This document shows, piece after piece, positions 6,486 to 36,821 of a stretch of 64,000 nucleotides of DNA; the stretch's first letter is position 1, and each line of letters begins with the position of its first letter. The notes under the pieces are model-generated. The model saw only the letters and a program-made list of their open reading frames with translations, had not been told where the DNA came from and did no database searches. The position numbers and the translations under genes are program-made. Source of the stretch: Gammaproteobacteria bacterium (GTDB taxonomy: Bacteria; Pseudomonadota; Gammaproteobacteria; CBDBNL01; JAAOII01); contig OZ242372.1 in NCBI GenBank assembly GCA_965209035.1, positions 1,088,001-1,152,000 on the forward strand. Direction: 5' to 3'.

Positions 6486-6513
6486 ATTATACTTTTAAGG
6501 AAAGGCAAGGCAA
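6486..6513 (-). promoter_or_regulatory. Sigma70-type promoter of TPR gene 1; equivalent -10 boxes at 8072, 9644, 10920, 14839 and 16786
   Basis: Minus strand TTGCCT-16 nt-TATAAT; the TATAAT and flanking leader are conserved upstream of all six TPR genes. Confidence 0.65.
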
Positions 6514-9584: not shown

Positions 9585-9716
9585 GATCTGTGTTGTCGTC
9601 GTCTTAGTGGTAAATTTTGAGTTTCTTTGCCCGGCATGTTTGCATTATACTTTTAAGCAAAACAAAATAAAGCAGTTGTTGGTAAAGTTTTGTGTCCGGT
9701 CATATTACAAGATTTT

Positions 9717-10823: not shown

Positions 10824-11051
10824 TGGCAGAACCTTTGGGTTGGTTGTATTAGTAGTGAATAATGAGTTCGGTTAATCTCTGCTTTCTATTGTTTGAACTT
10901 CTTTGCAAGACATGTTTGTATTATACTTTTAAAGGAAAGCAAAACCAAATTGAACTGTTCCTGAGTAAAAGATGTCCATGCTTCTTGGCAATATACCCGG
11001 TGCTTTTTAAAAAAGTGATTTAGAGTGTTTCGTCCAGTTGCTTTGTGTTTT

Positions 11052-14000: not shown

Positions 14001-14782
14001 AACTGGGCATGAATATTTCCTCGATTGTTGTATGCTATTGCATTTTTTGAATCAATCTGAAGGGCACGATTATAATCGGCAATGGCATGCTCGTATTGTT
14101 TTAACTGGACATGAGCAGTCCCCCGATTTAAGTATGCCTTAGCATCTTTCGGATTAATTTCAATAGCACGATCATAATCGGCTATAGATTGTTCATACTG
14201 TTCTAATTTAAACTTGGCAATTCCCCGATTGTTGTATGCGTTCGCATCTTTCAGATTAATTTCAATAGCACGATCATAATCGGCGATAGATTGTTCATAC
14301 TGTTCTAATTTAAACTTGATTTTTCCTCGATTATTGTAGGCATCTACATCTTTTGGATTAATTTCAATAGCACGATCATAATCGGCAAGAGCCTGTTCAT
14401 GCTGCTTCAATTCGCTTCTGACAGTTCCCCGATTGTTGTATGCGTTCGCATCTTTCGGATTAATTTCAATGGCACGACCATAGTCGGCAATAGCCTGTTC
14501 ATATCGTTTCAACCCGGCGTGGATAGTTCCCCGATTGTTGTATGTGTCCGCATCTTCCGGATTAATTTCAATGACACGATCAAAATCAGCAACAGATTGT
14601 TCGTATTGTTTCAACACAGCATAGGCAATTCCTCGATGTAAGTGCGCGTCGACATTTTTGGGGTCAAGCCTAATGGCTTGATCATATTCTTTTATTGCAC
14701 CCTGATAGTCCTTCTGTTGCAGAAGGGCAATACCTTTTTTCAAATACTCTTTTCCGGTCATGATCGATGTTGTTGGTAACAC
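11052..14782 (-). pseudogene. Very long TPR + transmembrane gene broken by stops and frameshifts (paralog of 14951-16708)
   Basis: ORFs 12965-14782 and 11801-12883 share a frame and are separated by a TAG at 12965-12967; TAA at 11801; extra base in the C5 run at 11762-11766 before the TM ORF 11197-11760, which aligns with the C-terminus of 14951-16708. Confidence 0.8.
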
Positions 14783-14950
14783 CTTTCGGTTGGTCGTATT
14801 AGTAGTGAATTTTGAGTTTTCTTGCCAGACACGTTTGTATTATACAATTAAACCAAATATACCCGACAAGATACAGGTTCGTAAAGAATATTTGGGCTCC
14901 CTGTCAATATACCTAGTGCTCTTTCATAAAGTGAATTAGAATTCTTCTCT

Positions 14951-17031: not shown

Positions 17032-20000
17032 ATGGCCAATTCATTTGAGGATGTCCTCAATACACTGAGGGAACTCAGTAACAATAAGAGGGAACAGGGG
17101 AGACGATTTGAGTGCTTGATGCAGTCCTTCTTGCAAGAAGACCCCGAATACAAAAATCTGTTTTCGGATGTCTGGCTGTGGGAACAATGGCCCGACCGCG
17201 ATGGTCCGGATACGGGCATAGACCTGGTTGCCCGCGAAAGGGAAACCGGGCGTTTCTGGGCAATCCAATGTAAGTTCTACAAGAAGGAGTATTCTCTGGC
17301 AAAGTCCGACATAGATTCGTTTTTGGCCGCCTCGGGAACAAGGCAATTCCACTACCGCATGATTATCAGCACCACCGATCAGTGGACGGGCAATCTGCGC
17401 CGAGAGGTAGAAAACCAAAAGACCCCCTGCCGGATTTTACGATTTCAAACTCTGGCGAAACGGGATATTGTGTGGCCCGACCTGGCAAGAAACCAAACAA
17501 CGATCAAAATCAATGCGCCCAAAAAACCATGGAAGCACCAAGAGGATGCCATTGAAAAAGTCATCGCCGGCTTAAAGGTTGCCGACCGGGGAAAACTGAT
17601 TATGGCATGCGGGACGGGCAAGACACTAACCTCAATAAGAATTGCCGAAAAGATGCTCCCGCAGGGTGGCACAGTGTTGTTTCTTGCGCCGTCTCTTTCC
17701 CTCCTGTCACAAAACATCTGCGAATGGGCGTATAACAAAACGACCGAGCATACTTATTTGGCGGTCTGTTCGGATACGGGGGTTGGCCGACATCGCAATC
17801 AAAAGACAGAGGAAGACGCAAACGACCCGGACGCCCACTATACAAAGTTGGAGGACCTGGCTTACCCCGCCACAACCAACAGCAAAGAGATACGCGACAG
17901 GCTCGGCAAGCGAAAAGAAAAATTGCAAGTTGTCTTTTCCACTTATCATTCGTTGGAAGTGCTGCACCTGGCACAAAAAGACGGCGCCGCCGAGTTTGAT
18001 TTGGTCATCTGCGACGAAGCCCACAAAACGGCGGGACAAAAAAGACCGGACGGGACCATTCCGGAGTTTTCCCAAATTCACGATGCCAACTACCTGCGCG
18101 CCCGCAAGCGATTATATATGACCGCCACCCCGAAAATTTTTGCCGAGAAGGCGCGCCAAAAAGCGGACGAGGCCGAAATAGATCTCTTTTCTATGGATGA
18201 CCCGAAGGTGTTCGGCGAAGAACTCTATCGCCTCAGTTTCGGCAAGGCGGTGGAGAACCGGATGCTGGCGGATTACAGGGTGATCATCCTGTGCGTCTCC
18301 AAAGAATACATCGCCAACAAGTTCCCCGCATTCTTGGCGGACCAAGATCTTAAATTACCGGATGCCGTCAAGATGGCGGGTTGCTGGCGTGCACTGACCG
18401 AGAAGGCCATATCGCAAAGAGAAGCATCCGGCGGCGATACCGGCCATACCGGAGATGCCGAAAACACCGCCAACCCGGCCGACACGGAAACACCGCCGAA
18501 AATCCTTTCCCGCTCGGTGGCATTTTTCAATCGTATCAAAGACTCAAAACATTTCCAAGAAAAGATGCAAAATGTCGTCAAAAGAATTCAAGACAAAAAA
18601 ACTGCCGAAGGAAACGAATCGCAAATCCCGTTCGGTATCGAGCATGTGGACGGAACTCAAGGAGCATTGGAACGCAGCCGGAAATTGGATTGGTTGCGCG
18701 ATGCGAGCAACGCAGAGTGCCGCATTCTGATGAATGTCCGCTGTCTTTCCGAAGGCATCGATGTGCCGGCCCTGGATGCGGTGCTGTTCATGCAGCCGCG
18801 CAGATCCGAAGTGGATGTGGTGCAATCGGTCGGGCGGGTGATGCGAAAGGCGCCCGATAAGAAATACGGTTATATCATTCTACCGGTGGTAGCGCCGGCA
18901 AATGCGGATGAAGCAAAGGTCTTGGACAAGAACGAAGATTACAAAACCATCTGGGAAGTTCTAAACGCACTGCGCGCGCATGACGACCGGTTCAATGCGA
19001 TGATTCACAAGATAGACCTCAACCACAAAAAACCGGACCAAGTGGATATCATCGGCATCGGCGCGGGCGGCGAGGTTGTCGAGGATACAAAAGGACTATA
19101 CGGGGGGCAATTGGATCTGCGTTTCGGTGAAATAGAAGAAAAGATTTACGCGACCATCGTCAAGAAATGCGGCGAGCGTCTGTATTGGGAAGATTGGGCA
19201 AAGAATGCCGCCGAACTTGTAAGCCATACGGAAACGCGCATCCGCGGTCTGGTTAAAAATAAGGAGGGCGCCGCCAAAGAATTCAACAAATTTCTTAAGA
19301 CACTGCGCGGGGCAATTAACCCCGCCATCACCGAAGAGGATGCCCGGATGATGCTCGGCCAGCATGCGGTGACCCAGGCAATTTTTGAAGCACTCTTTGC
19401 CGACTACGAGTTCGCGCAACAAAATCCCGTGTCGCAACGGATGAATGCGGTTCTAAACCATCTGGGACAATACGGTCTGCAAAACGAGGTTCGCGATCTG
19501 GAAAGTTTCTACGAGGATGTCCGCAAACGCGTTGCCAAAATAGACAACGCGGAAGGACGCCAAGCGGTCATGGCAAGCCTGTATGAGAAGTTCTTTTCGG
19601 CGGCATTTGCCAAGGAAGCAAATCGGCTGGGCATTGTTTACACGCCGCCCGAAGTGGCGGACTTCATTTTGCACAGTGCGGACGCGGTTGCCCGCCAAGA
19701 ATTCGGCGAAGGATTGGCGGACGAGAATGTTAACATTCTGGATCCCTTCACGGGAACCGGGCTGTTTGTCGCCCGCCTGCTTCAAAACAAGGAACTGATC
19801 GGCGATGATGCTCTCAAACGGAAATTCCAAAAAGAGGTCTTTGCCTATGAGACGGTCCTGCTGGCATACTACATCGCCGCCGTCAATATTGAGGCGGCCT
19901 ATCAGTCCCGGCTAAACGAAAAGCACTACGAACCTTTCAAGGGCATCGCCCTGACAGACACCTTTCAACGGGCGGAAAAGGATAAAACCGAAGACATCTT

Positions 20001-21984
20001 TAAGGACGACCTGAACGCGGAAAACGCGAACAAATCCGACCGGAAGGACATTCGCATCATCATCGGCAATCCGCCATATTCAGCCGGACAAAGAAATGAA
20101 AACGAGGACAATAAGAATCTGATCTACGAAAAATTGGACAAGCAAATCAGGAACACCTATGCCAACCCCAAATACAATAAAGCACAAAATAGAAACTCCC
20201 TTTACGACTCCTACATTCGGGCAATTCGCTGGGCGAGTGAACGCATCGGTGACCGCGGCATGATCGCCTTTGTAACAAACGGCGGCTTCCTATACAGTGC
20301 CGCCGGTTCCGGGGTGCGCAAGTGTTTGGCAGACGAGTTCTCCAAAATATACTGTTTGAATTTACGCGGCAATGCAAGAACTTCCGGTGAAGTTCGCCGA
20401 AAAGAAAAAGACAATGTTTTCGGTATGGGAACGCGCACTGCCATCGTCATCATCATCCTCATTAAGAATGGCAAAGAGGGCAAAGCCAATGCCAAAAATT
20501 ATGAAATCCTTTATCGGGATATAGGGGACTACCTAAAAAGAGAAGAAAAGTTAGCCTTTCTGCGGGAGAAAAAATCCGTTGCCGGCATCACCGACTGGCA
20601 AACCATTCAACCGGACGAATATCACGATTGGGTAGATCAACGGATAAACTTCCCGGCAGCCTACATACCGCTCGGCGATCAAAACAATAAAAAGGTTCTT
20701 AAAAATGCGAGGACGAATACAAGGAATGACAAGAGACAGAAAGCATTCAATATTAATCAGCCCCCTCGCCATTCCTTACAACTTCGCAGGTCTCTATTTT
20801 TATCTTTTTGCCTGGGCGTCAAAACAAACAAGGATCCATGGATTTACAATTTTGAACAACAGGCAGTCGCAGATAATATGCATCGCATGATCTCTTTTTA
20901 CGATGAACAACGTAAAGCATATCATCATCACAAGCAAGAGTGCGAAAAACAACAAGAACATCCTCCAAGTCCGGATGACTTTGTTAATAATGATCCGACA
21001 AAGATCAGTTGGGACGGCATTCTAAAAAATGAACTTGCAAGAAACAAATTTGATCCCTATCGCGAAGACGCCATCCGAAATTCCCTTTATCGCCCCTTTG
21101 TAAAAAAGCATCTTTACTTTGATCGGTTTTACAACAACAGTGTTTACAGGCTACCCTCTTTTTTTCCAAAACCAGATTCCCCGAACAAATTAATTTGTAT
21201 AACGGCAACTTCCGTGAATACTAATTTTTCAACATTAATAACCGATTTAATTCCCGACTTACACATTCTTTCCACTTCCCAGGTCTTTCCACTTTATTAT
21301 TATGACGAAGAGAATAAACGGCATTCCAACATAACACCCGCAGCCATTGCCGAGTTTAAAGAGAAGTATCAACACTCAGTTTCAGCGGAAGACATTTTTC
21401 ACTATGTATATGGTCTCTTGAACTGGCCGGCATTCAAGGTGCATTATGCCGATACACTCAAAAAAGAACTTCCCCGGATTCCCCTTCTAAAGTCCTACAA
21501 GACATTTTGCAATTTCCGGGACGCCGGCGAAAAATTGGCGAACCTGCATTTGAACTATGAGGCGGCGGCAGAATATAACCTGCGAGAACTAAACGCGCCG
21601 GAACAGGAAAGCGAGTCCGGTGATTTGAAATTGAATCACCAAGATAATCCGCCCCCGACAAATAATCGGCAACTCGAAAAGATACGGTTTGCCGGCAAAC
21701 AAAGACAACCGGACAAAACACAAATCGTCTATAACCCGCATCTTACGCTGGCGGGCATTCCCCTAAAAGCCTATGAGTATCAACTTTGCGGCAGATCGCC
21801 GCTGGAATGGGTGATGGAATTTTATCAAAAGAAAACGAACAAAGACAGCGGCATCACCGACGACCCGAATGCCTTGCTGCGCGAGGACCCCAACCACCTG
21901 GTCAGCCTGATAAAACGCCTCGTCACAGTCAGCATAGAAACCACAAAAATCATTGAAACCTTCCCCGAAAAACTACACGAGTAA
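17032..21984 (+). CDS. Type ISP restriction-modification enzyme (LlaGI/LlaBIII family)
   Basis: 1650 aa; Mrr-like GIDLV...AIQCK, SF2 helicase MACGTGKT/DEAH/TATP/QSVGRVMR, MTase LDPFTGTG and GNPPY, C-terminal TRD. Confidence 0.93.
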   Translation: MANSFEDVLNTLRELSNNKREQGRRFECLMQSFLQEDPEYKNLFSDVWLWEQWPDRDGPDTGIDLVARERETGRFWAIQCKFYKKEYSLAKSDIDSFLAASGTRQFHYRMIISTTDQWTGNLRREVENQKTPCRILRFQTLAKRDIVWPDLARNQTTIKINAPKKPWKHQEDAIEKVIAGLKVADRGKLIMACGTGKTLTSIRIAEKMLPQGGTVLFLAPSLSLLSQNICEWAYNKTTEHTYLAVCSDTGVGRHRNQKTEEDANDPDAHYTKLEDLAYPATTNSKEIRDRLGKRKEKLQVVFSTYHSLEVLHLAQKDGAAEFDLVICDEAHKTAGQKRPDGTIPEFSQIHDANYLRARKRLYMTATPKIFAEKARQKADEAEIDLFSMDDPKVFGEELYRLSFGKAVENRMLADYRVIILCVSKEYIANKFPAFLADQDLKLPDAVKMAGCWRALTEKAISQREASGGDTGHTGDAENTANPADTETPPKILSRSVAFFNRIKDSKHFQEKMQNVVKRIQDKKTAEGNESQIPFGIEHVDGTQGALERSRKLDWLRDASNAECRILMNVRCLSEGIDVPALDAVLFMQPRRSEVDVVQSVGRVMRKAPDKKYGYIILPVVAPANADEAKVLDKNEDYKTIWEVLNALRAHDDRFNAMIHKIDLNHKKPDQVDIIGIGAGGEVVEDTKGLYGGQLDLRFGEIEEKIYATIVKKCGERLYWEDWAKNAAELVSHTETRIRGLVKNKEGAAKEFNKFLKTLRGAINPAITEEDARMMLGQHAVTQAIFEALFADYEFAQQNPVSQRMNAVLNHLGQYGLQNEVRDLESFYEDVRKRVAKIDNAEGRQAVMASLYEKFFSAAFAKEANRLGIVYTPPEVADFILHSADAVARQEFGEGLADENVNILDPFTGTGLFVARLLQNKELIGDDALKRKFQKEVFAYETVLLAYYIAAVNIEAAYQSRLNEKHYEPFKGIALTDTFQRAEKDKTEDIFKDDLNAENANKSDRKDIRIIIGNPPYSAGQRNENEDNKNLIYEKLDKQIRNTYANPKYNKAQNRNSLYDSYIRAIRWASERIGDRGMIAFVTNGGFLYSAAGSGVRKCLADEFSKIYCLNLRGNARTSGEVRRKEKDNVFGMGTRTAIVIIILIKNGKEGKANAKNYEILYRDIGDYLKREEKLAFLREKKSVAGITDWQTIQPDEYHDWVDQRINFPAAYIPLGDQNNKKVLKNARTNTRNDKRQKAFNINQPPRHSLQLRRSLFLSFCLGVKTNKDPWIYNFEQQAVADNMHRMISFYDEQRKAYHHHKQECEKQQEHPPSPDDFVNNDPTKISWDGILKNELARNKFDPYREDAIRNSLYRPFVKKHLYFDRFYNNSVYRLPSFFPKPDSPNKLICITATSVNTNFSTLITDLIPDLHILSTSQVFPLYYYDEENKRHSNITPAAIAEFKEKYQHSVSAEDIFHYVYGLLNWPAFKVHYADTLKKELPRIPLLKSYKTFCNFRDAGEKLANLHLNYEAAAEYNLRELNAPEQESESGDLKLNHQDNPPPTNNRQLEKIRFAGKQRQPDKTQIVYNPHLTLAGIPLKAYEYQLCGRSPLEWVMEFYQKKTNKDSGITDDPNALLREDPNHLVSLIKRLVTVSIETTKIIETFPEKLHE

Positions 21985-22179
21985 GTCCACGGATCACCGC
22001 CAAACTCTTGCCCGCATCTCGCCACCCAACATCAGCCCGCCTCACACTGTTATCCTGCCCGAAAAGATTCACTTAAGACCCGACACCCAATATCGCGATT
22101 TACAAGTTCACAAAAAAGATACGAAAGTACATCCTCGCTTGTTTGGAATGATTAAAATTATTACAACTACCAAAAAATA

Positions 22180-23022
22180 ATGACTACGACAAAATCGAAT
22201 ATAAAAAAAGTCCAATGCTATGGAGCAAACTTTGGCGAAAAAATGATGGAAAGGTTTTTTTCAAATATCAAGCCCCAACCATGGAATTGGAAAACAGACT
22301 TAGGAAAATATGAGCGCCTGCACACTCTTTATAAGACAGATCTCAAAGATAATAAAAAAGAAGAAGTACATTGCAAGGTACTTAAATTAAGAAATCTTTA
22401 TGGACTTCAACTCTGTATTCACAATGATGAATTACCCCGCGTCGTGCAGCATTTGTTTAAACACAAAAAAGATATTAGCAAGGACATTAAACGCGGTGAT
22501 AAAAATATAGTTGGAGATCTTGCAAAAAACGCTGCTTACCCCAAAAGGCTATGGACTTTTGCCACAAAATTTTGTTTCTTTGTGGAAAAAAACAATGAAT
22601 ACCCCATTGATGATTCACTTGTTCGAGGTGCGTTGAAACACTATGAAGAGGAACTTAAAAAACTCGGTCCGCGAATAGTCAAAATATACCATGGCCCTTT
22701 TGAACAACGATTAAAGGATGTAAAAAAGATATGGCGTAATCCAGATCCAAATACCTCAGATCCTCTGGATTATTCCGTTTACAAGGATACCATAGATGAC
22801 TTTATAAAAATATATCATCTGGACGGTATCACTTACAGGGAATTAGATTGGTACCTTTGGGTATTTGGAAAAATACTTAAAAAGAAAAACGATCCAACAG
22901 ACAAAATCCATAACCATTTTTCAAAAAAAGAGCTAGAGAAATTAATAAAAGACATGGCTTTGGAAGTTAAGTACCCCTTACAAAAGATCGGACTTTCTAT
23001 CAAGAGCACCTCAAAAACTTAA
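22180..23022 (+). CDS. Hypothetical protein, possibly HhH-GPD-like fold
   Basis: 280 aa low-GC ORF with FATKFC, YPIDDSLV and RELDWYLW motifs; the fold is an inference. Confidence 0.6.
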   Translation: MTTTKSNIKKVQCYGANFGEKMMERFFSNIKPQPWNWKTDLGKYERLHTLYKTDLKDNKKEEVHCKVLKLRNLYGLQLCIHNDELPRVVQHLFKHKKDISKDIKRGDKNIVGDLAKNAAYPKRLWTFATKFCFFVEKNNEYPIDDSLVRGALKHYEEELKKLGPRIVKIYHGPFEQRLKDVKKIWRNPDPNTSDPLDYSVYKDTIDDFIKIYHLDGITYRELDWYLWVFGKILKKKNDPTDKIHNHFSKKELEKLIKDMALEVKYPLQKIGLSIKSTSKT

Positions 23023-23148
23023 ACCGACGTAGTTTGTTCGGGTGAGCGAATAGATAAAAATTGTTTTTCGGATCGTTAGAACCTGGCGTTTATAAAACTT
23101 GAGATGTTTTCCGGCTCATTTGAAATGAGCCGGGGCTATTTGGCGAGT

Positions 23149-24870
23149 TTAATCTTTCGGGTATGGCCAGACTTTAAGTGCTTTTTTATAAAGCCATAGA
23201 GCGCGTTTCTCTATGAGAGATTCATCCCATTTTGCCGCATGTAGAAATTCTTTCGTGTCAAAAGTCTTAATTCCGGCGGCGTATTCTTTTAATGCCTCTT
23301 GCTTGTCTTTCCATGCTTTATCTTTAACAGAGCCATTTGCCCCGGGTCTTAAGATAGCCAGATTTCCCAATCTTAATAATAGATAATCTCTATTATCCGC
23401 ATCTATATCATCCTCGTTCCAATTCTTTCTCCAGTTCTTAGGCATAACATGTTCCAAAGAAAAATCTTTGTAGGGACACAAGTCGACAGCATTTCGTTCG
23501 GGTCTCCCCAAAGAAATATCCAACAAATAAAGAATAGTTTGAGCATCTCTATTAATCAGCTTACTATGAGCAAAGCCCTCTTCCAGGGATTGGTCCGAGG
23601 GGAACTCATTATCCCCGGTTAGTTCCAGCAAACGTTCTCTCAATTTGTCATAACTATGTATCCCATCATTCCCGATCATGTCAGCGAATAGCCTATTATA
23701 ATTTTTTGTAGAATTTTTACATACGATCCGCCTTGTAAGATAATTTTCTAGAAGAGAAAACATCTTATCCCTTTCAGTTTTATCGGAAACCTTTGTCAAA
23801 ACATACAAAATATAATGAATCACCGGGGTGTTAAATGATCCCAGAACCGGTATCATGAGTTTTTGAATTGGTTGCTTTGCATCTATCCTTTCTTTCAATA
23901 GATCAATATTAATATTCTCTCTGTATGTTCTCGCAAGATCCATAAGTTTTTTAATAAACTTTTTATCCCCTTTTCTTATGTTATTATTTTTGAGATATAA
24001 TTTGTAATTCTTAAACAAGGCATCTATATTTTCATATCCTTGTTCTTTGCTGTCTCTTTCTTTGGAAAAGATCAGCAGCGAAGACTGCATAAAAAGATCA
24101 AGATTATGGCGTCTTCTTACAATTTCCGAATCCCAAAATGATTTGTTATCCTCCTGTTCAAATTCAGATTTCCAAGTTGTTTCATATAGGTTCTTACTTT
24201 CACTGTCAAATAATTCATTCTTTAATAATTCTGCCGGTGTCAAGGATACCCCAATAGAATTAATCGTATCAAAAATCTGTTGCTCGTCTTCGTTTTCATC
24301 CAATCCAACTTCCAAAAAAGAGAGGTTATCCTCTATGCGATCAATAAATTCTTTCTTAAGGTTCTTAAATATATCGCTTTTTTTGAAGTACTCATAACAT
24401 GCAAAAGTTTGGTCATTATATTCAATCTTTCCTCTGTATTTTCTTTTTATATAACTTCCTTTATCTTCCTCAGTCATGCCGCTCATTATGGAATTAAAGC
24501 ATTCAATATTATTATGGTTATGATGCAATATAGGTTCTTTTTTGCGATTAAAAAATTTTTTCTTAAACTCTTCAACATCATCGAGTTTTTCATACAACAA
24601 TCGCATCAAAATACAGAGGGTGGTTAATCTTTGCTGTCCGTCTATCAATAAACGGACATCGCCTATTTCTTCTCCGGCAGGGCGCCTCTGTTGTTTGAGG
24701 ATTAAGCAACCCATAAAATGAGATTCATTTTTATCACAAATTTTCTCCACAGAATCTAAAAAACGATCCCATTGCTCTTCCTCCCATACATAAGCCCTTT
24801 GAAAAAAAGGAACTACTATGCTGCGGTTATTAATGAATAAACTTAATGGTCCTAATGGGCTAGTTTTCAT
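23149..24870 (-). CDS. DUF262-DUF1524 protein (GmrSD/SspE-like)
   Basis: PFFQRAYVW, IDGQQRLTT, IFDTINSIG; C-terminal LEHVMP...LGNLAIL...N HNH-type motif. Confidence 0.9.
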   Translation of the reverse strand: MKTSPLGPLSLFINNRSIVVPFFQRAYVWEEEQWDRFLDSVEKICDKNESHFMGCLILKQQRRPAGEEIGDVRLLIDGQQRLTTLCILMRLLYEKLDDVEEFKKKFFNRKKEPILHHNHNNIECFNSIMSGMTEEDKGSYIKRKYRGKIEYNDQTFACYEYFKKSDIFKNLKKEFIDRIEDNLSFLEVGLDENEDEQQIFDTINSIGVSLTPAELLKNELFDSESKNLYETTWKSEFEQEDNKSFWDSEIVRRRHNLDLFMQSSLLIFSKERDSKEQGYENIDALFKNYKLYLKNNNIRKGDKKFIKKLMDLARTYRENINIDLLKERIDAKQPIQKLMIPVLGSFNTPVIHYILYVLTKVSDKTERDKMFSLLENYLTRRIVCKNSTKNYNRLFADMIGNDGIHSYDKLRERLLELTGDNEFPSDQSLEEGFAHSKLINRDAQTILYLLDISLGRPERNAVDLCPYKDFSLEHVMPKNWRKNWNEDDIDADNRDYLLLRLGNLAILRPGANGSVKDKAWKDKQEALKEYAAGIKTFDTKEFLHAAKWDESLIEKRALWLYKKALKVWPYPKD

Positions 24871-25119
24871 AATGATTTTTGATTGAATAATAAAAGGTAT
24901 AAAAAATTTAACTTACTTATAACTTATTATAACCGAATGCATCATCCCGGAAAGATTTTGGACTCTTCTAAGCAATCACCCCGTTACGCACACCAACAAC
25001 TTTCACCGGTTCCGTTCGGGCAAAAATACCGGGAGTTGAAACCGGGTAAGGTTATGGTATTTTCACTTATAATTTATGTAATTTAGCAAGAAGTTATTTA
25101 TACATACTATTAATCAAAA

Positions 25120-26334
25120 ATGAAATCTACAGAAAAGAAAACCTTTAAGGAAGCGGCCATTGAGGCCCTGAAAGAAGCTGGCAAGCCTCTTTCGGCCCTG
25201 GATATTTCTTCTATCGCACAGAGAAGAGGATGGATTGAACCGAAAAGTAAAACACCGGAAGCAAGTATCAGTGCAGCTCTTTATACGGATATGAAAAATA
25301 AGGGCGATGACTCTGCATTTGATCAACCGGAAGCCGGGCTTTTTGATCTAAGCCACAAAAAGAAACAGTCCATCGCGAAAAGCGAACAGGTCGTGTATGT
25401 AATGACAACTCGGGCCATGCCGCATTATGTAAAGGTAGGAATAACAACCGAATACGGGCTAAACAACCGCCGCAAAACAATGAGCAGCACAAGTGTCCCT
25501 TTCCCATTTAAGATTTACTATGCGGCTGTGGTTGAAGATTCAAAGGGCATTGAAAGAAAGATCAGTAAAATTTTTGAGGATAAAAAAGTACATGAAAGAA
25601 AAGAGTTTTACGAGATATCTGCAGAAAAAATGAAACTAGTCATTTCAATGGCAGCCAAGCGTGTTATTTCGCCTGCCGAACAAGAACCCGGTGCAAACCC
25701 GCCTGTCGACCCGGTAGTTGTACAGGAAAAGCCGGGCGAAGGAAGCAAGACATCATCCGTGAAGCAAGAAAAAAAAGAAAAAACACCGCCCTTTCGTTTT
25801 AATCACATTCAAATTCGTCCCGGTAGCATTCTTTACTTTGTTAAAGACAAGGAGATCACTTGCGAAGTGGCGGACGATCGTCATGTCATTTATAAGGGTG
25901 AGAAGATACTTCTGGGCAAAGCATCAGAACTGGCATTGAATTCAAAAGGCTATTATTGGAAAGGTTATCAGGGAATTAATCATTGGGAATACAATGGAAG
26001 GAAATTAAAAGACATACGCGATTCTGTGAAACAAAACAGCGGAAAGATATCGCAAGATAGTCCGGAAGCCGGAAAAAAAGAAAGGGCACCACTATTCCGT
26101 TTTAACCACATTCAAATTCGCCCCGGTAGCACCCTCACCTTTGCGGAAGACGCGAGTATCACCTGCGAAGTGGCGGACGATCTTCATGTGATTTATAAAG
26201 GCGAGAAGATGCGTCTAAGCAACGCGGCAAAAGAGGCGTGGAAATTAAAAGGTCATCTTGGAAAGGCTTATCGCGGCTCCAAGCATTGGAAATACAACGG
26301 CAGGATCTTACAAGATATTCTCGACTCCATATAA
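25120..26334 (+). CDS. HARE-HTH + GIY-YIG (T5orf172-like) + two RAMA-like domains
   Basis: TFKEAAIEAL...KTPEASISAALY (HARE-HTH); VYVM...YVKVGIT...VPFPF...KEFY (GIY-YIG); duplicated FRFNHIQIRPGS...HWxYNGR C-terminal domain. Confidence 0.75.
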   Translation: MKSTEKKTFKEAAIEALKEAGKPLSALDISSIAQRRGWIEPKSKTPEASISAALYTDMKNKGDDSAFDQPEAGLFDLSHKKKQSIAKSEQVVYVMTTRAMPHYVKVGITTEYGLNNRRKTMSSTSVPFPFKIYYAAVVEDSKGIERKISKIFEDKKVHERKEFYEISAEKMKLVISMAAKRVISPAEQEPGANPPVDPVVVQEKPGEGSKTSSVKQEKKEKTPPFRFNHIQIRPGSILYFVKDKEITCEVADDRHVIYKGEKILLGKASELALNSKGYYWKGYQGINHWEYNGRKLKDIRDSVKQNSGKISQDSPEAGKKERAPLFRFNHIQIRPGSTLTFAEDASITCEVADDLHVIYKGEKMRLSNAAKEAWKLKGHLGKAYRGSKHWKYNGRILQDILDSI

Positions 26335-26341
26335 AGCGGCG

Positions 26342-28042
26342 ATGGTTGCCCGCTTTGTCCGGGCGGGCATTGGGAACTTGGCTCGGATTTTGATTCCGGG
26401 TCTGTGCCTGATGTTCATCTTTGCAAAGAGCGGCATGGTATATGCGGATGAGTATTCGGCGGGAGGTGCCGGGGACATCCTTCTTGTTGAAACCGAGCCG
26501 GAACAGGGTGAGGGCGGCGGTGAGCAGATTCCCCCGGCCGAGGATCTCGGCGGCGATGATCTGTTTATCATTGAAGAATCGGGCGAGGAGGCGGATGCCA
26601 AAACGGGGAACCGGGGCTGGGAGTATATGACTAAGCACTTTGGCGGTGAGTTGATTGGCTCTTATGCGGGCATCGGCGATGCGGACAACGGGCGGTCGGG
26701 GCTGCAGGGAAGACTTCGCTATCAGGAGGATTGGTCTTGGGGCGGCGCGGCGGTGGAGGCGATTGCCTACTACTCGAGCGTGGAGTTGACTCTGGGGCGC
26801 GGCGAGAATGCGAACCAAGACACTTTTACCCAAACTTTTGAGACGAGCGATCTGGTGCTGCGCGAGGCCTATCTGCGTGCCGACCCGTTTGAGTGGTGGC
26901 GGCTGACAGCCGGGCGGCAGGTGGTGTCGATCGGGCAGTTTGATATTTTTTCGCCGGTGGATTTTGTGTTGCCGGTGGATTTTACCAACACGCGCCTTTC
27001 TTACAACAAAGTGGAATACCGCTTACCGCAGGATGCCTTGCGGAACAATTTTTATTTCGGCGGCAACTGGCGGCTTGAAACGGTTTGGTTTCCCACTCTT
27101 CTCACGGACGATCTGACGCGTCTGGTGCAGTCGGCACCGCAACAATATTATGATCCGACGCTGAACCGGGATGTGACGGTGGAGCGCGAGTTCCCCGCGG
27201 ACGAAAATCAATATTTACTTCGGTTGATCTATGAGGGCAATGATCTCACTTATGGTTTTACTTTTTATGACGGTTACAATCTGTTTGTGTTTGGCGGGAC
27301 GAGTTCGTTTTTGCACAAGGAGCCTCTGAACGGAGAGGTTGACGGTGACCTTTGGCAATATCGGGAGATCCGGCCGAACCTGCAACGCCGGCGCGCCTAT
27401 GGGTTTGAGTTGGCAAAACAGATTAAGAAGTTTTCGGTGAAGTTTGAAATCCTGGCGGAGCGGTCGACGCAGAATTTGGATTTGATTGCCAACCCTGTCG
27501 CGGACCTGAACCCCGTCCAAAGGCAGTATGCGGATTTTATCCGGAACGAGAACGGCGGGCGGCTGTATGTGGAAGGGGATCAGATCATCGCCGCGCTGGG
27601 GTTTGATTATTACGATGACAGGAACTTCTTTAATGTGTATCTGATCTCTTTTGAGAATTTTTTGGACAGTCGCGGCCGGCGTGCCGTCAACCTGGCGGAG
27701 CGTGCCTATCCGGACGAGTCGGGCGCACCTTTTGGCAATGTGTTTCCGGCATTTAATATTGGCGGTTTTTACGGCGAGCGTAATCAACACACGGTGGGTT
27801 TTATTAGCGGTTTTTTGAGTTTTGCCATAGGCGGCAGTTTGTATTATCTGAACGACTATTACGAATCGCTTCAATACGGGGTTTCGTTGGAAGCGTTTCA
27901 GTATTTGAGTAACTTTGTTAACGCGCGCCGCGCGGCGAATGACGATGATGAATCCTTTGCCCGCGGCGATGACGAGGAAAACATCCGACAACAAAATGCT
28001 TTTTCGGTCGGCTTGCGGGTGGGGTTTGAGTATAATTTCTGA
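26342..28042 (+). CDS. Outer-membrane beta-barrel protein, paralog 1
   Basis: Signal-peptide-like start, LREAY and GRQVVSIG motifs, terminal GFEYNF; start moved to 26342 to avoid overlap with the upstream gene. Confidence 0.75.
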   Translation: MVARFVRAGIGNLARILIPGLCLMFIFAKSGMVYADEYSAGGAGDILLVETEPEQGEGGGEQIPPAEDLGGDDLFIIEESGEEADAKTGNRGWEYMTKHFGGELIGSYAGIGDADNGRSGLQGRLRYQEDWSWGGAAVEAIAYYSSVELTLGRGENANQDTFTQTFETSDLVLREAYLRADPFEWWRLTAGRQVVSIGQFDIFSPVDFVLPVDFTNTRLSYNKVEYRLPQDALRNNFYFGGNWRLETVWFPTLLTDDLTRLVQSAPQQYYDPTLNRDVTVEREFPADENQYLLRLIYEGNDLTYGFTFYDGYNLFVFGGTSSFLHKEPLNGEVDGDLWQYREIRPNLQRRRAYGFELAKQIKKFSVKFEILAERSTQNLDLIANPVADLNPVQRQYADFIRNENGGRLYVEGDQIIAALGFDYYDDRNFFNVYLISFENFLDSRGRRAVNLAERAYPDESGAPFGNVFPAFNIGGFYGERNQHTVGFISGFLSFAIGGSLYYLNDYYESLQYGVSLEAFQYLSNFVNARRAANDDDESFARGDDEENIRQQNAFSVGLRVGFEYNF

Positions 28043-28341
28043 TTATATTTTCAGCCGGCGGCGCGGCGATGATTGTCGTCAGCCGGCGAAGACCTATTCG
28101 GGTATCCAAAAAATAAAAAGTAAAGTCCGAGGTCTTTAATTGCATTGGCTTGCGGGCGTGCCGCGCTGCCTTGCCGGGGTATCGCCTCGGCAGAGTTTTG
28201 GAGTTCGCCCGGACAAGAACAGGCGGCGGCCGAAATCCGGTGAGATGATCAAGAGTGATATAATAACTGAAAATTTTTATAGATCCTGAATTCAAGTAAC
28301 ACATCAATAATGATCATCGCAGAACTGCAAAATAACCGCCT

Positions 28342-28565
28342 CTTTAATAAAGATGACTTTTTCCCGCTTCTTCGATCTGAGCGGCTTCACGGGGACGGGT
28401 AATACTTTAATAAAGATGGTTTTTCTCCGCTTCTTCGATCTGAGCGGCTTCACGGGGACGGGTAATACTTTAATAAAGATGGCTTTTCCCCGCTTCTTCG
28501 ATCTGAGCGGCTTCACGGGGACGGGTAATACTTTAATAAAGATGGTTTTTCTCCGCTTCTTCGAT
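28342..28565. repeat. 63-bp tandem repeat, ~3.5 copies
   Basis: CTTTAATAAAGATG recurs at 28342, 28405, 28468 and 28531. Confidence 0.95.
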
Positions 28566-28587
28566 TGCTCTTTCCAAAGACAACTGA

Positions 28588-30321
28588 GTGCTGAGTGCTG
28601 CGTCCGGGCGGGCCGGGGCAGTGGGCTCGGGGGCGGTATTGAGGCAGGCGGGCATTCATTTGGGTGAAAACTTGAATCGGGTTTTAGGCCTGTGCCTGCT
28701 GCTCGTTCTTGCAAGCAGTGGTATGGTATGTGCGGATGAGTATTCGGCAAAACAGGGCGGGGGCGGCGAGAGGATCCGCCTGGCGGCGGAAGATGCCGAC
28801 AACGGCGATCTGTTCATCATTGAAGAATCTACAGAGGAGACGGATGCCAGAACGGGGGATCGGGGGAATGGAAAAAATCGGGGTTGGGAGTATATGACGA
28901 AGCATTTCGGCGGCGAGGTGATAGGCTCTTATGCGGGCATCGGCGACGCAAACAACGAGAGGTCGGGGCTGCAGGGAAGGCTGCGGTTCCGGGAAGATTG
29001 GTCTTGGGGCGGCGCGGTGGTGGAGGCGATTGCCTACTATTCAAGAGTGGATCTGACCCTGGGGCGCGGCGAGAACGGCGGCGAAGATGTGTTTAGCCAA
29101 ACTTTTGAAGCGAGCGACCAAATGCTGCGCGAGGCCTATGTGCGCGCCGACCCGTTTGAGTGGTGGCGGCTGATAGCCGGGCGGCAGGTGGTGTCGATCG
29201 GGCAGTTTGATATTTTTTCGCCGGTGGATTTTGTGTTGCCGGTGGATTTTACCAACACGCGCCTTTCTTACAACAAGGTGGAATACCGCTTACCGCAGGA
29301 CGCCTTGCGGAATAATTTTTACTTTGGCGGCAACTGGCGGCTTGAAACAGTTTGGTTTCCCACTCTCCGCACGGACGATTTTACGCGTGTGGTGCAGTCG
29401 GCGCCGCAACAATATTATGACCCGACGCTGGGGCCGGAGGGCCGGGATGTGACGGTGAAAACCGAATTCCCCGCGGACGAAAATCAATACTTACTTCGGT
29501 TGATCTATGAGGGAAATGACCTCACTTATGGCTTCACTTTTTATGACGGTTACGATCTGTTTGCACTCGGCGGTGCGACGCATGTTTTGCGTAAGGGTGT
29601 GGGGCCGGGGCCTCCGGACGAACAGCGACAAGCGGATTGGTATTATCGGGAGATCCGGCCGAGCACGCAACGCCGGCGTGCCTATGGGTTTGAGTTGGCA
29701 AAACAGATTAAGAAGTTTTCTGTGAAGTTTGAAATTCTGGCGGAACGGGGAATAGAGATTTTGAACTTTATCACAAGTCCCGTTGAACTCCTGAACGCCG
29801 ACGAGAGGAGATATGTTAATTTTATCCGAGACGAGAACGGCGGCCGGCTGGATGTGGAAAGGGAGCAGATACTCGCCGCGTTGGGGTTTGACTATTACGG
29901 CGACAAGAATTTCTTTAATGTGTATCTGCTCGGCTTTCAAGAGTTTTTGGACAGTCGCAGCCGGCGCGCGGTTGAACTGGCGGATCGTGCCTATCCGGAG
30001 CAAACTGTGATCAATGCCAATGTGTTTCCGGCATTTAATATGGGCGGTTTTTACGGCGAGCGCAAACAACACACGGTGGGTTTTATCGGCGGTTTTTTGA
30101 GTTTTGCCCTGGGCGGAAGTTTGTATTATCTGAACGACTATTACGAGTCGTTTCAATATGGGGTTTCGTTGGAAGCATTACAGTATCTGAGTAACGCTGT
30201 TTACGGGCAACAAGCGGCAAATGAAGACGATGAAACCATGGCCGTCGGCGACGAAATGGGAGTCCAACAACGCAACCCCGTTACAGTCGGCTTGCGGGTC
30301 GGGTTTGAGTATAGTTTCTGA
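28588..30321 (+). CDS. Outer-membrane beta-barrel protein, paralog 2
   Basis: Long identical blocks with 26342-28042; terminal GFEYSF; start uncertain. Confidence 0.75.
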   Translation: MLSAASGRAGAVGSGAVLRQAGIHLGENLNRVLGLCLLLVLASSGMVCADEYSAKQGGGGERIRLAAEDADNGDLFIIEESTEETDARTGDRGNGKNRGWEYMTKHFGGEVIGSYAGIGDANNERSGLQGRLRFREDWSWGGAVVEAIAYYSRVDLTLGRGENGGEDVFSQTFEASDQMLREAYVRADPFEWWRLIAGRQVVSIGQFDIFSPVDFVLPVDFTNTRLSYNKVEYRLPQDALRNNFYFGGNWRLETVWFPTLRTDDFTRVVQSAPQQYYDPTLGPEGRDVTVKTEFPADENQYLLRLIYEGNDLTYGFTFYDGYDLFALGGATHVLRKGVGPGPPDEQRQADWYYREIRPSTQRRRAYGFELAKQIKKFSVKFEILAERGIEILNFITSPVELLNADERRYVNFIRDENGGRLDVEREQILAALGFDYYGDKNFFNVYLLGFQEFLDSRSRRAVELADRAYPEQTVINANVFPAFNMGGFYGERKQHTVGFIGGFLSFALGGSLYYLNDYYESFQYGVSLEALQYLSNAVYGQQAANEDDETMAVGDEMGVQQRNPVTVGLRVGFEYSF

Positions 30322-30535
30322 TAGTGTTTTAAGCCGGCGGCGTCCCAATGATTGACGGCATCCGGTAAATACTTTTTTGAATCTCCTATGAAGGAAGTGC
30401 CAAACCGGGGCGGTTGCCTGTTCCGCCGCCATCCGACAAATACTTCTTTGAATCTTCTTTGAAGGAAGCAGCCAAAGATTCGTTCCGGTTGTATGGGTCT
30501 CGGGAAGTTCGGAAAGTGCCTTTAGTTAATCGTCT

Positions 30536-30636
30536 TATAATAAGCAATGTACAGCCAAGATCTGAGGCACAGGTAAACTCTGTGTAGGAGTGACGGGCCC
30601 CGCCCCCCGACATGCAAATGTTGGGGGTGCTTTTTT
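30536..30636 (+). ncRNA. NYN-associated small-RNA unit 1 (type A)
   Basis: TATAAT, hairpin GCACAG-N7-CTGTGT, hairpin CCCCCGACAT-GCAA-ATGTTGGGGG, T6 tract. Confidence 0.6.
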
Positions 30637-30653
30637 AAACCATCCAAACAATT

Positions 30654-30667
30654 TCCGTTATAACGGA
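30654..30667. promoter_or_regulatory. Palindrome TCCGTTATAACGGA (also 32241-32254, 32413-32430; variant at 32598-32611)
   Basis: Perfect 14-18 bp palindrome in the spacers, ending ~40-43 bp before the next TATAAT. Confidence 0.55.
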
Positions 30668-30710
30668 GAAAACATAAGATCTCGGGAAGTGTTTTTTTAG
30701 TTAATCGTCT

Positions 30711-30811
30711 TATAATAAGCAATGTACAGCCAAGATCTGAGGCACAGGTAAACTCTGTGTAGGAGTGACGGGCCCCGCCCCCCGACATGCAAATGTTGGG
30801 GGTGCTTTTTT
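30711..30811 (+). ncRNA. NYN-associated small-RNA unit 2 (type A)
   Basis: Identical to unit 1, 175 bp downstream. Confidence 0.6.
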
Positions 30812-30982
30812 AAACCCCCAATACAATTTTTCGAAACACCGAATACGACTTCGTTTCACCGGTCACCGCCTTTGGGTGAAAATGAGCATTCCCCAAAGTG
30901 CCAAAACCCACCCGCAACTATGTTGTTTGCATAAGGGTGCGGTACATAATCCGCAAATCGGTGTTTTTTTAGTTAATCGTCT

Positions 30983-31083
30983 TATAATGGATAATGATCA
31001 GCCAAGATCTGAGGCACAGGTAAACTCTGTGTAGGAGTGACGGGCCCCGCCCCCCGACATGCAAATGTTGGGGGTGCTTTTTT
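30983..31083 (+). ncRNA. NYN-associated small-RNA unit 3 (type A)
   Basis: Same core; differs only in the ~10 nt after TATAAT. Confidence 0.6.
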
Positions 31084-31235
31084 AAACCCCCGATACAATT
31101 TTTTCGAAACACGAGATATGCCACCGTTTCACCGGTCACCGCCTTTGGGTGAAAATGAGCATTTCCAAAAGCACCAAAACCCACCCGCAACTATGTTGTT
31201 TGCCCAAAAACACGGTATAGCTGCTGTTGTGTATG

Positions 31236-31244
31236 TGATATAAT
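31236..31244 (+). promoter_or_regulatory. Extended -10 promoter (TGaTATAAT) of the NYN gene
   Basis: Ends 16 nt before the ATG; no SD visible. Confidence 0.55.
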
Positions 31245-31260
31245 AACCGAAAATTTTTAT

Positions 31261-32091
31261 ATGTCTAAGCTTAAATATCCTATGAAGCCAAAGGTTTGTG
31301 CTTATGTTGACGGGTATAACCTGTATTACGGATGTCTTAAAGACAATCCGCAATATAAGTGGCTGGATGTTACAAAATTTTTGGAGTTGTTATTGGGCGG
31401 TTCTTATGATATTGGCAAAATCAAGTACTTTACGGCACGCATTAAGAGTTTATACTTACCGACTCTAAAAAATGTAAATGCAACAAAAGAAGATGAAAGA
31501 GAAAGAGAACAAGAACAAAAAAAAGAAAGACAGGCAGCCTACCTAAGGGCGTTAAAGACTCATTCTCGTATAGAAATTATAAAAGGCCATTATGTTGCTC
31601 GCAATGAAGCGAAAAAAGTTCCCGAGGTTAAGAATAAGAATAAGAAGTTGTACTTTACAGGGCGTAATGTTTTCATAAGAAAAGTTGAAGAAAAAGGAAC
31701 CGATGTTAATCTTGCCGTTCATCTACTTGCCGATGCCTTTCGTGATAGATATGATAGGGCTGTTGTCGTGAGTGCCGACACAGATTTAAGGCAAGCGATC
31801 GAGATGGTCAAAAAAGAGTGCAGCAAACCGGTGAGTGTTATCAATCCAAATATAAACAATCTTCGTAGTGGACTGGAAAAAATTGCGGATGAGTATATTC
31901 CTTTGGGGAAAGACAAAATTCTCTCTTGTTCTTTCCTTGGTAAAGCACAACTACCCAATGAGATTCCTATAGAAGGATCATCAGATGTAATCAAGAAACC
32001 GGATTATTACAATGAACAAGTTGAAGAGATGCGTAATAATAGAAAAATAAGAGAAATTTTTGAAGATAATGCATATTATTTTCTTAAATAG
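31261..32091 (+). CDS. NYN domain (LabA/DUF88, PIN-fold) putative ribonuclease
   Basis: YVDGYNLY, EEKGTDVNLA and VSADTDL acidic motifs are all intact. Confidence 0.9.
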   Translation: MSKLKYPMKPKVCAYVDGYNLYYGCLKDNPQYKWLDVTKFLELLLGGSYDIGKIKYFTARIKSLYLPTLKNVNATKEDEREREQEQKKERQAAYLRALKTHSRIEIIKGHYVARNEAKKVPEVKNKNKKLYFTGRNVFIRKVEEKGTDVNLAVHLLADAFRDRYDRAVVVSADTDLRQAIEMVKKECSKPVSVINPNINNLRSGLEKIADEYIPLGKDKILSCSFLGKAQLPNEIPIEGSSDVIKKPDYYNEQVEEMRNNRKIREIFEDNAYYFLK

Positions 32092-32113
32092 CACTTTTTT
32101 TAGTTAATCGTCT

Positions 32114-32213
32114 TATAATAGGCAGCGACTAGCAAAGATCTGGTACACAGATTTTATCTGTGTAGGAGTGAAGGCCACGCCCCCCGGTATGCAAATGCCG
32201 GGGGCGTTTTTTT
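32114..32213 (+). ncRNA. NYN-associated small-RNA unit 4 (type B)
   Basis: TATAAT, hairpin ACACAGAT-TTT-ATCTGTGT, hairpin CCCCCGGTAT-GCAA-ATGCCGGGGG, T7 tract. Confidence 0.6.
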
Positions 32214-32296
32214 AATCCCTTTTTAATCCCCAATACAATTTCCGTTATAACGGAGAAAACACAAGACTTTGGGAAGTGTTTTTTAGTTAATCGTCT

Positions 32297-32397
32297 TATA
32301 ATGGATAACGACCAGCCAAGATCTGAGGCACAGGTAAACTCTGTGTAGGAGAGACGGGCCCCGCCCCCCGACATGCAAATGTTGGGGGTGCTTTTTT
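32297..32397 (+). ncRNA. NYN-associated small-RNA unit 5 (type A)
   Basis: Same core as units 1-3 with minor substitutions. Confidence 0.6.
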
Positions 32398-32470
32398 AAA
32401 CCCCCGATACAATCTCCGTTATAACGGAGAAAACACAAGATCTCGGGAAGTATTTTTTAGTTAATCGTCT

Positions 32471-32570
32471 TATAATAGGAAACGACTAGCAAAGATCTGA
32501 GGCACAGATTTTATCTGTGTAGGAGTGAAGGCCACGCCCCCCGGTATGCAAATGCCGGGGGCGTTTTTTT
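32471..32570 (+). ncRNA. NYN-associated small-RNA unit 6 (type B)
   Basis: Hairpins as in unit 4. Confidence 0.6.
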
Positions 32571-32733
32571 AAACCCTTTTTAATCCCCAATACAATTTCC
32601 GTTATAGCGGAGAATACGCGAGGCAGGTAATATCATAGATCCATCGGGTGCTGCAAATTGCCGAAGCCGAAAATGCATCCCCCGTTAATCCATTGAAAAT
32701 CTTTTATGTTATTGCCTGCCTTTAAAGAAGCAC

Positions 32734-35286: not shown

Positions 35287-35907
35287 CTAAGCGACCGCTT
35301 TTAAGAAAGAAGAAAGTTTCTTGACAACAACGGCGGCGGTATCGCCCGGTTGATAAACGGCACCGCCCAGTGCCACCGCCAGGGCGCCGGCTTGCAGATA
35401 CTCTTTGACCAGAGACGGCGTTACGGAACCGGTGGCGATGATAGGGGTCGGCGGCAACAGGGGCATCAGTGATTTGAGATAGCCGCTGCCGACTTCGCCG
35501 GCCGGGAAGAATTTGAGGATCTGCGCGCCGGCATCCAGCGCGGCAAATGCCTCGGTGGCGGTGTGAAAGCCGGGAACGAACGGCAAGCCGATGGTGCGGG
35601 CGTGGCGAATGACTTCCGCGGAGACATTCGGGGCAAGGGCATAGGTGCCGCCCGCATCCAGACAGGCGGTGGCGTCTTTCCGATTAAGCACTGTGCCGCC
35701 GCCGACAAGAATTTCCCGCTTGCGGGAAAGAAGACGAATGCAGTGCGCCGCGTCCGGCGATGTAAAAGGAACTTCTATGCAGCGGATACCCGCTTTGACG
35801 AGATGGTCGGCAATTTCTTCCGCATCGCCCGGCGGGACGCCGCGCAAAATGACGATGAACGGCAGTTCTTTCAGGGCGGCTAAGAGTCGGGCTTGCATTG
35901 TTTGCAT
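35287..35907 (-). CDS. dgoA: 2-dehydro-3-deoxy-6-phosphogalactonate/KDPG aldolase family (DgoA-like)
   Basis: ILRG, IEVPFTSP, GGTVL and TATEAFAALDAGAQILKFFPA closely match E. coli DgoA motifs. Confidence 0.75.
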   Translation of the reverse strand: MQTMQARLLAALKELPFIVILRGVPPGDAEEIADHLVKAGIRCIEVPFTSPDAAHCIRLLSRKREILVGGGTVLNRKDATACLDAGGTYALAPNVSAEVIRHARTIGLPFVPGFHTATEAFAALDAGAQILKFFPAGEVGSGYLKSLMPLLPPTPIIATGSVTPSLVKEYLQAGALAVALGGAVYQPGDTAAVVVKKLSSFLKAVA

Positions 35908-36821
35908 CTTTTAAAGCAAAGATTAGTTAAAGGTTTTCAAGCCCGGAGCGTCCCGGTGCCGCGGTGGCGTCTTTCCGATTAAGCACTGTGCCGCCGCCGA
36001 CAAGAATTTCCCGCTTGCGGGAAAGGAGGCGAATGCAATCCGCCGCGTCCGGCGATGTAAAAGGAACTTCTATGCAGCGGATACCCGCTTTGACGAGATG
36101 GTCGGCAATTTCTTCCGCATCGCCCGGCGGGACACCGCGCAAAATGGCAATGAACGGCAGTTCTTTCAGGGCGGCTAAGAGTCGGGCTTGCATTGTTTGT
36201 ATCCTTTAAAGCAAAGATTAGTTAAAGGTTTTCAAGCCCGGAGCGTCCCGGTGCCGCGGTGGCGTCTTGCCGATTAAGCACTGTGCCGCCGCCGACAAGA
36301 ATTTCCCGCTTGCGGGAAAGAAGACGAATGCAGTGCGCCGCGTCCGGCGATGTAAAAGGAACTTCTATGCAACGGATACCCGCTTTGACGAGATGGTCGG
36401 CAATTTCTTCCGCATCGCCCGGCGGGACGCCGCGCAAAATGACGATGAACGGCAGTTCTTTCAGGGCGGCTAAGAGTCGGGCTTGCATTGTTTGCATCTT
36501 TTAAAGCAAAGATTAGTTAAAGGTTTTCAAGCCCGGAGCGTCCCGGTGCCGCGGTGGCGTCTTGCCGATTAAGCACTGTGCCGCCGCCGACAAGAATTTC
36601 CCGCTTGCGGGAAAGAAGACGAATGCAGTGCGCCGCGTCCGGCGATGTAAAAGGAACTTCTATGCAACGGATACCCGCTTTGACGAGATGGTCGGCAATT
36701 TCTTCCGCATCGCCCGGCGGGACGCCGCGCAAAATGACGATGAACGGCAGTTCTTTCAGGGCGGCTAAGAGTCGGGCTTGCATTGTTTGCATCTTTTAAA
36801 GCAAAGATTAGTTAAAGGTTT
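35666..36821 (-). repeat. 295-bp tandem amplification giving three truncated 5' copies of the aldolase gene
   Basis: Units start at 35666, 35961, 36256 and 36551; ORFs 35927-36193, 36222-36497 and 36517-36792 all end ...DATAAPGRSGLENL. Confidence 0.95.

Follow-up and report, generated by a model that had tools for sequence, protein, structure and literature searches.

A candidate RNA-antitoxin family on the NYN nuclease fold, with a probable atypical member amplified in a gammaproteobacterial genome

PIN-fold toxins are the usual partners of protein antitoxins, and only a few folds are known among protein toxins that an RNA blocks, namely those of the three type III families and of AbiF. The type III families ToxIN, CptIN and TenpIN join an RNase toxin to a small RNA gene beside it, on plasmids and prophages, in an operon that runs from promoter through tandem RNA repeats and an intrinsic terminator to the toxin gene (PMC13682666). 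[quoted passage not shown] Here we analyse a stretch of 64,000 nucleotides (the window; assembly GCA_965209035.1, contig OZ242372.1, positions 1,088,001 to 1,152,000) of a gammaproteobacterial genome of 2.24 Mb (G000), in which an NYN/LabA-DUF88 PIN-fold gene of the HEC-09 clade (31261..32091, +; 276 aa, 36% GC) stands between six copies of a small unit predicted to encode an RNA. A comparison across the clade points to a candidate RNA-antitoxin family on the NYN fold, of which the window would be an atypical member.

The window protein belongs to the same clade as HEC-09 and has its MARF1-like NYN fold and conserved aspartates. As the original prediction had it, the open reading frame (ORF) is intact. 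Its acidic residues are kept as well. It matches PF01936 at E 5.5e-9 (37.1 bits against a cut-off of 24.2) and the PADLOC HEC-09 profile PDLC04163 at 133.9 bits (E 1.3e-39; residues 11-248, profile positions 3-200 of 203), with no NCBIfam match. D17, D148 and D175 are invariant in 64/64 aligned homologues and D173 is present in 63/64; all four are found in the window protein. For its AlphaFold model (pLDDT 90), Foldseek returned 2qip as the best hit (E 4.9e-7) together with MARF1 NYN domains, and a sequence search of the Protein Data Bank gave only 2qip (E 0.012). The protein differs from HEC-09 as a long-branch member with insertions, including a charged helical insert and a C-terminal helix; in a quick tree, it shares a long branch within the RNA-bearing clade with P0002, a relative that is 74% identical. 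The clade is present on 434 plasmid records, including E. coli plasmids of 3.5-4.6 kb. HEC-09 has been described as a single-gene candidate, and the word 'ncRNA', other wordings aside, does not occur in the main text of that report (10.1101/2024.01.29.577857). The NYN.COG1432/LabA-like group, which likewise has Pfam NYN and 2qip as best structural match, is listed as of unknown function (PMC5499597), and NYN and DUF88 are absent from the main text of 10.64898/2026.09.22.753630. We found no description of an NYN-linked RNA in the literature searched, although RNA-motif catalogues in supplements or subscription journals could list the motif. Two HEC-09-like NYN proteins (L174:877-1833 and L181:877-1848) carry a C-terminal extension and are labelled in RefSeq as a monooxygenase (nicB), probably a mis-annotation, or as an Xre/MbcA/ParS antitoxin-domain protein.

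The flanks of NYN genes in a GTDB sample (the best 80 of 568 stretches encoding relatives) hold an element of ~65 nt, which consists of a promoter, a pyrimidine-rich leader, a hairpin and a terminator whose near-invariant base consists of a G-C pair, a C-G pair and a bulge. In an alignment of 41 hand-picked copies, 16 of 18 base pairs changed on both sides, a value as high being reached in 0/500 shuffles and slid controls lying much lower; nested hairpins, folded without pseudoknots, explain this covariation. A model of the element (R1) matches 75/80 of the GTDB loci at E<=1e-3, with 35/40 among loci held out of training, and the five missed loci have a similar hairpin-terminator layout by eye or are truncated by a contig end. 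The same model matches 34 of 48 viral loci, which are partly redundant, and all five plasmid or prophage loci that were tried first. Of nine plasmid loci at greater distance only one scored; seven of the others have a longer irregular hairpin and a terminator upstream of the gene, and the last, L178, has neither. The longer irregular-hairpin RNAs of diverged NYN subfamilies score <=12 bits with R1. Because the distant NYN genes of G000 and its relatives (L001/L004, L009, L013) show no significant match, the RNA appears to be tied to the HEC-09 clade. The element is absent from Rfam, which gave only tRNAs in the 16 loci searched. These results support a coupling of the NYN clade to an adjacent small RNA, in the manner of type III systems or AbiF, across many phyla. 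Some second RNA copies, in L015 and L063, precede second or broken NYN genes. An orphan copy with a promoter at L107:1501-1573 (genome G004) is nearly identical to the RNA that precedes the NYN gene of L006 in the same genome. A further candidate small RNA of ~105 nt, promoter-bounded and with two hairpins and a C-rich single-stranded stretch, lies between two housekeeping-type genes with no NYN nearby in genomes G003 and G002 (L108:1501-1593, -; L109:1501-1593, +) and scores 20 bits with R1.

Most R1 matches (62/75) precede the NYN gene on its own strand, as a rule no more than tens of nucleotides from its start. In the other 13 the RNA is on the opposite strand, convergent and just past the stop codon in 11 cases and upstream and divergent in two, and these cases are scattered over several groups of the quick tree. 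When four phage, plasmid and viral loci are added to the 13 from GTDB, 9 of the 17 opposite-strand RNAs have a sigma-70 match of at least 9/12, against 0.12 expected from random windows, and the best matches of all 17 fall at one offset. Tandem arrays of the RNA or its first hairpin occur on small enterobacterial plasmids and contigs (L111:1330-1480; L101 upstream of 1163; L176 upstream of 904; L110:290-401; L131:1347-1486). L101 and L111 have four hairpin copies between promoter and NYN gene with a terminator before the gene, L110 and L131 have two RNA units, and L176 is also an array in the order promoter, array, terminator, gene. Because of the opposite-strand and array cases, the family RNA fits a trans-acting partner in a layout like that of type III toxin-antitoxin systems, and not a mere 5' leader.

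The operon layout of ToxIN, CptIN and TenpIN (PMC13682666) is thus seen in L101, L110, L111, L131 and L176. The window differs from it, since each copy there has its own predicted promoter and terminator and three copies stand downstream of the gene. The toxins differ as well: the window protein matches only NYN in Pfam, and its fold matches NYN/PIN proteins and not ToxN-like ones. Type III RNAs are described as H-type pseudoknots, whereas the NYN-family RNA is predicted, with nested folding only, as plain closed-loop hairpins; it is also commonly present in one copy and may form a gene of its own, convergent or divergent. The abiF RNA motif is present in Rfam, in contrast to the window units and the NYN-family RNA, which no Rfam family matched. 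AbiF/RCd22 is nonetheless the best functional analogue, although AbiF is an Abi_2/AbiD/F protein linked to Cas13 and not an NYN protein (10.1101/2025.04.15.648962).

The window array agrees with the original prediction in its six co-oriented copies, three on each side of the NYN gene, which start at ~30521, 30696, 30968, 32099, 32282 and 32456 and end exactly at 30636, 30811, 31083, 32213, 32397 and 32570. All six share the TTAGTTAATCGTCTTATAAT head, which a variable stretch separates from a hairpin, and after this come AGGAG, a GC-rich GCAA-loop hairpin and T6-7. Each reads as a predicted stand-alone RNA gene of 87-88 nt. Seven variable bases separate TATAAT from a pyrimidine-G start, and a 5-nt leader then runs into a long irregular hairpin, which a short linker joins to a strong terminator; the five copies folded have z-scores of -2.6 to -3.9. 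Unit 1 (30536..30636, +; TATAAT 30536-30541) would give an 88-nt RNA at 30549-30636 with this leader, hairpin and intrinsic terminator, and unit 2 (30711..30811, +; TATAAT 30711-30716) exactly the same RNA at 30724-30811. Unit 3 (30983..31083, +; TATAAT 30983-30988; predicted RNA 30996-31083) precedes the nuclease gene. An extended -10-like box, TG-N-TATAAT (31236..31244, +), lies 16 nt 5' of the NYN start codon and is predicted to be the gene's own promoter. Downstream are unit 4 (32114..32213, +; TATAAT 32114-32119; predicted 87-nt RNA 32127-32213), unit 5 (32297..32397, +; predicted RNA 32310-32397) and unit 6 (32471..32570, +; predicted RNA 32484-32570). The units fall into two sequence types that are 76-81% identical, with unit 4 of type B, unit 5 of type A and unit 6 a mosaic, mostly of type B. 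Differences between units in the terminator stem, such as those of unit 4, preserve pairing (A-U to G-C, C-G to U-G).

A second locus in G000 (G000:C1:1529474-1530017; L003:5474-6017) holds three further tandem copies of 216-217 bp between uppP and a lipoprotein gene, which brings the genome to nine copies at two loci. These paralogues are 63-68% identical to the window units, and the third has a longer inner hairpin. A pyrimidine-G pair stands exactly 7 nt past TATAAT in 9/9 copies, which are not independent of one another, against 126/952 TATAAT sites genome-wide. The intervening 7-mer varies, with seven forms over the nine copies, and the start register is fixed. There is no -35 element or TG extension 5' of the unit TATAAT, and a sigma-70 scan made no call there; the unit promoter can only be called putative because the -35 element is missing. 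What supports the unit promoter is the fixed pyrimidine-G start. AGGAG, taken as part of the unit in the original prediction, holds for the six window copies and is not present in the three paralogous ones. No match in the window reached the Rfam 15 gathering threshold, in line with the expectation that the unit belongs to no known unrelated family; matches to PyrR and Spot 42 were weak and far below the gathering score. Other identities were set aside on inspection: a peptide-coding unit (AGGAG is unconserved in the paralogues and has no spaced start), a type I antisense toxin (no conserved hydrophobic ORF), a CsrB-like sponge (a single GGA, outside a loop) and a k-turn (the extra bases fall on the short strand). 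Resemblances to ribozymes and SRP were dropped, as they had no Rfam support.

The repeat period of the array is ~175 bp with shared spacers included, and the array therefore arose by tandem duplication rather than by six insertions. A truncated copy (30814..30930, +) in the spacer between units 2 and 3 is 89% identical to the sequence that leads from unit 3 to the NYN promoter. It would be what remains of an NYN cassette that was duplicated and then lost in part, and suggests that a cassette of unit and NYN has been duplicated and deleted more than once. Short-read contigs, from one sample and a further shallow run among which the source sample may be, cover the stretch piecewise with breaks at the repeats, none of the pieces listed spanning all of it. 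A divergent low-depth contig, possibly from the source sample, joins the 3' part of NYN to a unit with 28 differences in 188 nt, which favours their pairing. Neither unit DNA nor the unit model found anything in the relatives G001-G005 (G004 is just 72% complete), and nothing unit-like lies downstream of uppP in the five relatives; the neighbouring pfkB gene was not found with the query used at E 1e-20. A metagenome scan with P0001 and P0002 gave one distant locus only, and in viral sequences a scan for the unit terminator turned up neither a full unit nor an NYN gene, only 12 unrelated hairpins. Short local direct repeats lie nearby at 30356-30468 (42 nt twice) and 28340-28560 (~63 nt several times), as is typical of this duplication-prone genome.

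Several observations weigh against reading the window as part of an RNA-antitoxin family. With R1 and a broadened model (R3) the units score 7-11 bits, and chance matches reach 16 bits; the unit model in turn finds nothing significant in 87 NYN loci or the five related genomes. The original proposal of a type III-like NYN-RNA module, to be sought by covariance models, is thus supported in part, by the clade-wide adjacent RNA and by units that look like separately transcribed small RNAs; against the family models the units did not rise above noise. The units have neither the C-rich leader nor the CCUG/CAGG stem base of the family RNA, and the array forms of the family repeat hairpin 1 and not the terminator. 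The three copies at the second locus have no NYN gene adjoining. Six copies are not special, because local direct duplications in G000 form 161 clusters spanning 9% of the genome; duplication accounts for the copy number and suffices for the copies on both sides of the gene, which had been thought a special design. Family RNA copies without a nearby NYN occur at L107, L115, L078:637 and L052:2177, and in a sample of 151 genomes of the class, with 32 candidates scored per genome, none of six RNA matches, of which one was strong and five scored 23-32 bits, lay within ~1.5 kb of an NYN ORF. Finally, one HEC-09, tested as a clone that included its putative native promoter region, gave no protection against the phages tested, and no toxicity was noted for it (Payne et al., 10.1101/2024.01.29.577857).

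The units are, on the other hand, the sole candidate RNA for the HEC-09-clade NYN of G000, as no canonical family RNA was found anywhere in that genome and its second NYN gene is of the distant type and has no unit. They match the family layout of promoter, short leader, hairpin and terminator with a GC/bulge/GC base, next to a HEC-09 gene. The terminator-base motif of the family (G-C, C-G, bulge, U tract) occurs at 4 of 134 terminator-like sites in G000, all four being units, and in GTDB loci at 23/36 sites near NYN ends against 1/19 elsewhere; this test is post hoc, chosen after both unit and family RNA had been viewed, and the strict motif is present in 4/9 units with variants seen by eye in others. 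The RNAs of other diverged NYN subfamilies likewise fall to noise level with R1, so that a low score is no peculiarity of the units. The window is probably a diverged, amplified and atypical member of the family, and we lean towards a pairing of its units with the NYN gene.

If the family pairing is real and the window units are instead an unrelated, lineage-specific trans-acting small RNA, then an NYN cassette that had shed or outgrown its own RNA would have landed inside an array multiplied by tandem duplication. The insignificant scores of the units against the family models, the NYN-free copies beside uppP, the genome's duplication clusters and the nuclease's own promoter-like box and long branch would all follow. 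We nevertheless consider this unlikely, for the rare terminator-base motif is common to units and family RNA, an RNA-free member would be an exception among relatives of which 75/80 adjoin an RNA, and the absence of unit homologues from five related genomes and from the region 3' of their uppP argues against a core small RNA. Position-independent pairing implies a link in trans and not its sign, so that the RNA could also serve a non-toxic NYN ribonucleoprotein as its obligate cofactor, its substrate or its cargo, for instance as an RNA that is processed or protected; the HEC-09 tested, with no defence and no noted toxicity, would agree with this. This is quite unlikely in our judgement: the family alignment has no variable guide-like segment, and nothing supports the guide role once suggested for the units; arrays before a terminator, tiny plasmids and orphan RNAs beside decayed NYN genes would fit an excess of antitoxin.

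Autoregulation of NYN by the RNA as a cis-acting 5' leader or attenuator, as in ribonuclease leaders, would suit the 62 matches that lie upstream on the same strand, and the AbiF RNA is reported to act in cis as well as in trans (10.1101/2025.04.15.648962). We regard it as improbable in view of the 13 opposite-strand cases, many with their own promoter and spread over several tree groups, and of the window, where three units lie downstream of a gene that has a promoter-like box of its own. The RNA may have a cis role alongside a trans role, but a cis role cannot be the whole story. A non-functional or mobile DNA repeat of the MITE/REP type seems a highly improbable reading of the unit, even in a duplication-prone genome. 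Genome-wide scatter without NYN had been named as the observation that would speak for such a repeat; three copies do lack NYN, but the nine copies sit at just two loci in 2.24 Mb, no terminal inverted repeats were found around the unit when inverted pairs were inspected, and copies that are 63-81% identical keep pair-preserving changes and a fixed start-site register.

For the window we return to an RNA antitoxin. In this model, NYN is a toxic metal-dependent RNase inhibited by a small RNA, and the units are the lineage's diverged and amplified RNA genes; our judgement on it is finely balanced and tips slightly to the other side. For the family as a whole, once a trans-acting partner is granted, we regard an antitoxin function as likely. 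We infer the toxicity, binding, transcription and trigger of the module as follows. A small structured RNA would be overproduced from its own promoter and would bind the nuclease by its 5' leader and first hairpin, holding the RNase inactive. Were the RNA lost or degraded, upon plasmid loss, transcription shut-off or stress, the nuclease would be released; the pair would then act as an addiction or stress module and possibly in abortive defence. Of these roles, addiction or a response to stress is a better fit than phage defence. In the window the nuclease would be under its own predicted promoter, and the genome's habit of tandem duplication would have multiplied the RNA gene. The direct repeats flanking NYN would allow the nuclease gene to loop out, leaving orphan RNAs as at the second locus, whose three copies could be antitoxin genes that have survived their toxin or that lacked one from the start. 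With similar caution, HEC-09-clade NYN proteins and adjacent RNAs of ~60-95 nt may form an undescribed cross-phylum RNA-antitoxin family in which the window is a co-diverged protein-RNA pair, its antitoxin dose tuned by an accordion of separately transcribed flanking RNA genes.

If true, these would be the first RNA-antitoxin systems on a PIN/NYN nuclease with plain hairpin RNAs that work from any orientation, adding a new fold to the RNA-blocked toxins and giving a function to the abundant 'NYN domain-containing protein' of hundreds of enterobacterial and other plasmids. RNA inhibition could also explain why HEC-09 was inert when cloned with its upstream region. The array loci are the simplest test modules, and the 3.5-4.6-kb E. 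coli plasmid modules lend themselves to direct tests.

The locus had been placed at the end of a defence island. The defence-type cluster (17032-26334) comprises a type ISP restriction-modification enzyme, an unknown 280-aa gene, a GmrSD-like gene and a HARE-HTH/T5orf172 protein that matches PADLOC PDC-S57. These defence-type genes end ~4 kb upstream of the unit locus, and two genes (26258-30321) intervene, so that a defence role is doubtful given this distance and the inactive HEC-09 tested. The two intervening genes are tandem paralogues of ~580 aa with no Pfam match (26258-28042 and 28588-30321) and set the unit locus apart from the defence cluster; their products end in an aromatic residue and are probably outer-membrane barrels. 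The NYN promoter box recurs as a 27-nt copy at 28255-28281, after the first of them. Elsewhere in the window are about seven tandem TPR-repeat genes (5169-16708, -) and an aldolase-like gene, so labelled by eye (35287-36792, -), the 5' part of which is repeated head-to-tail with a period of ~295 bp.

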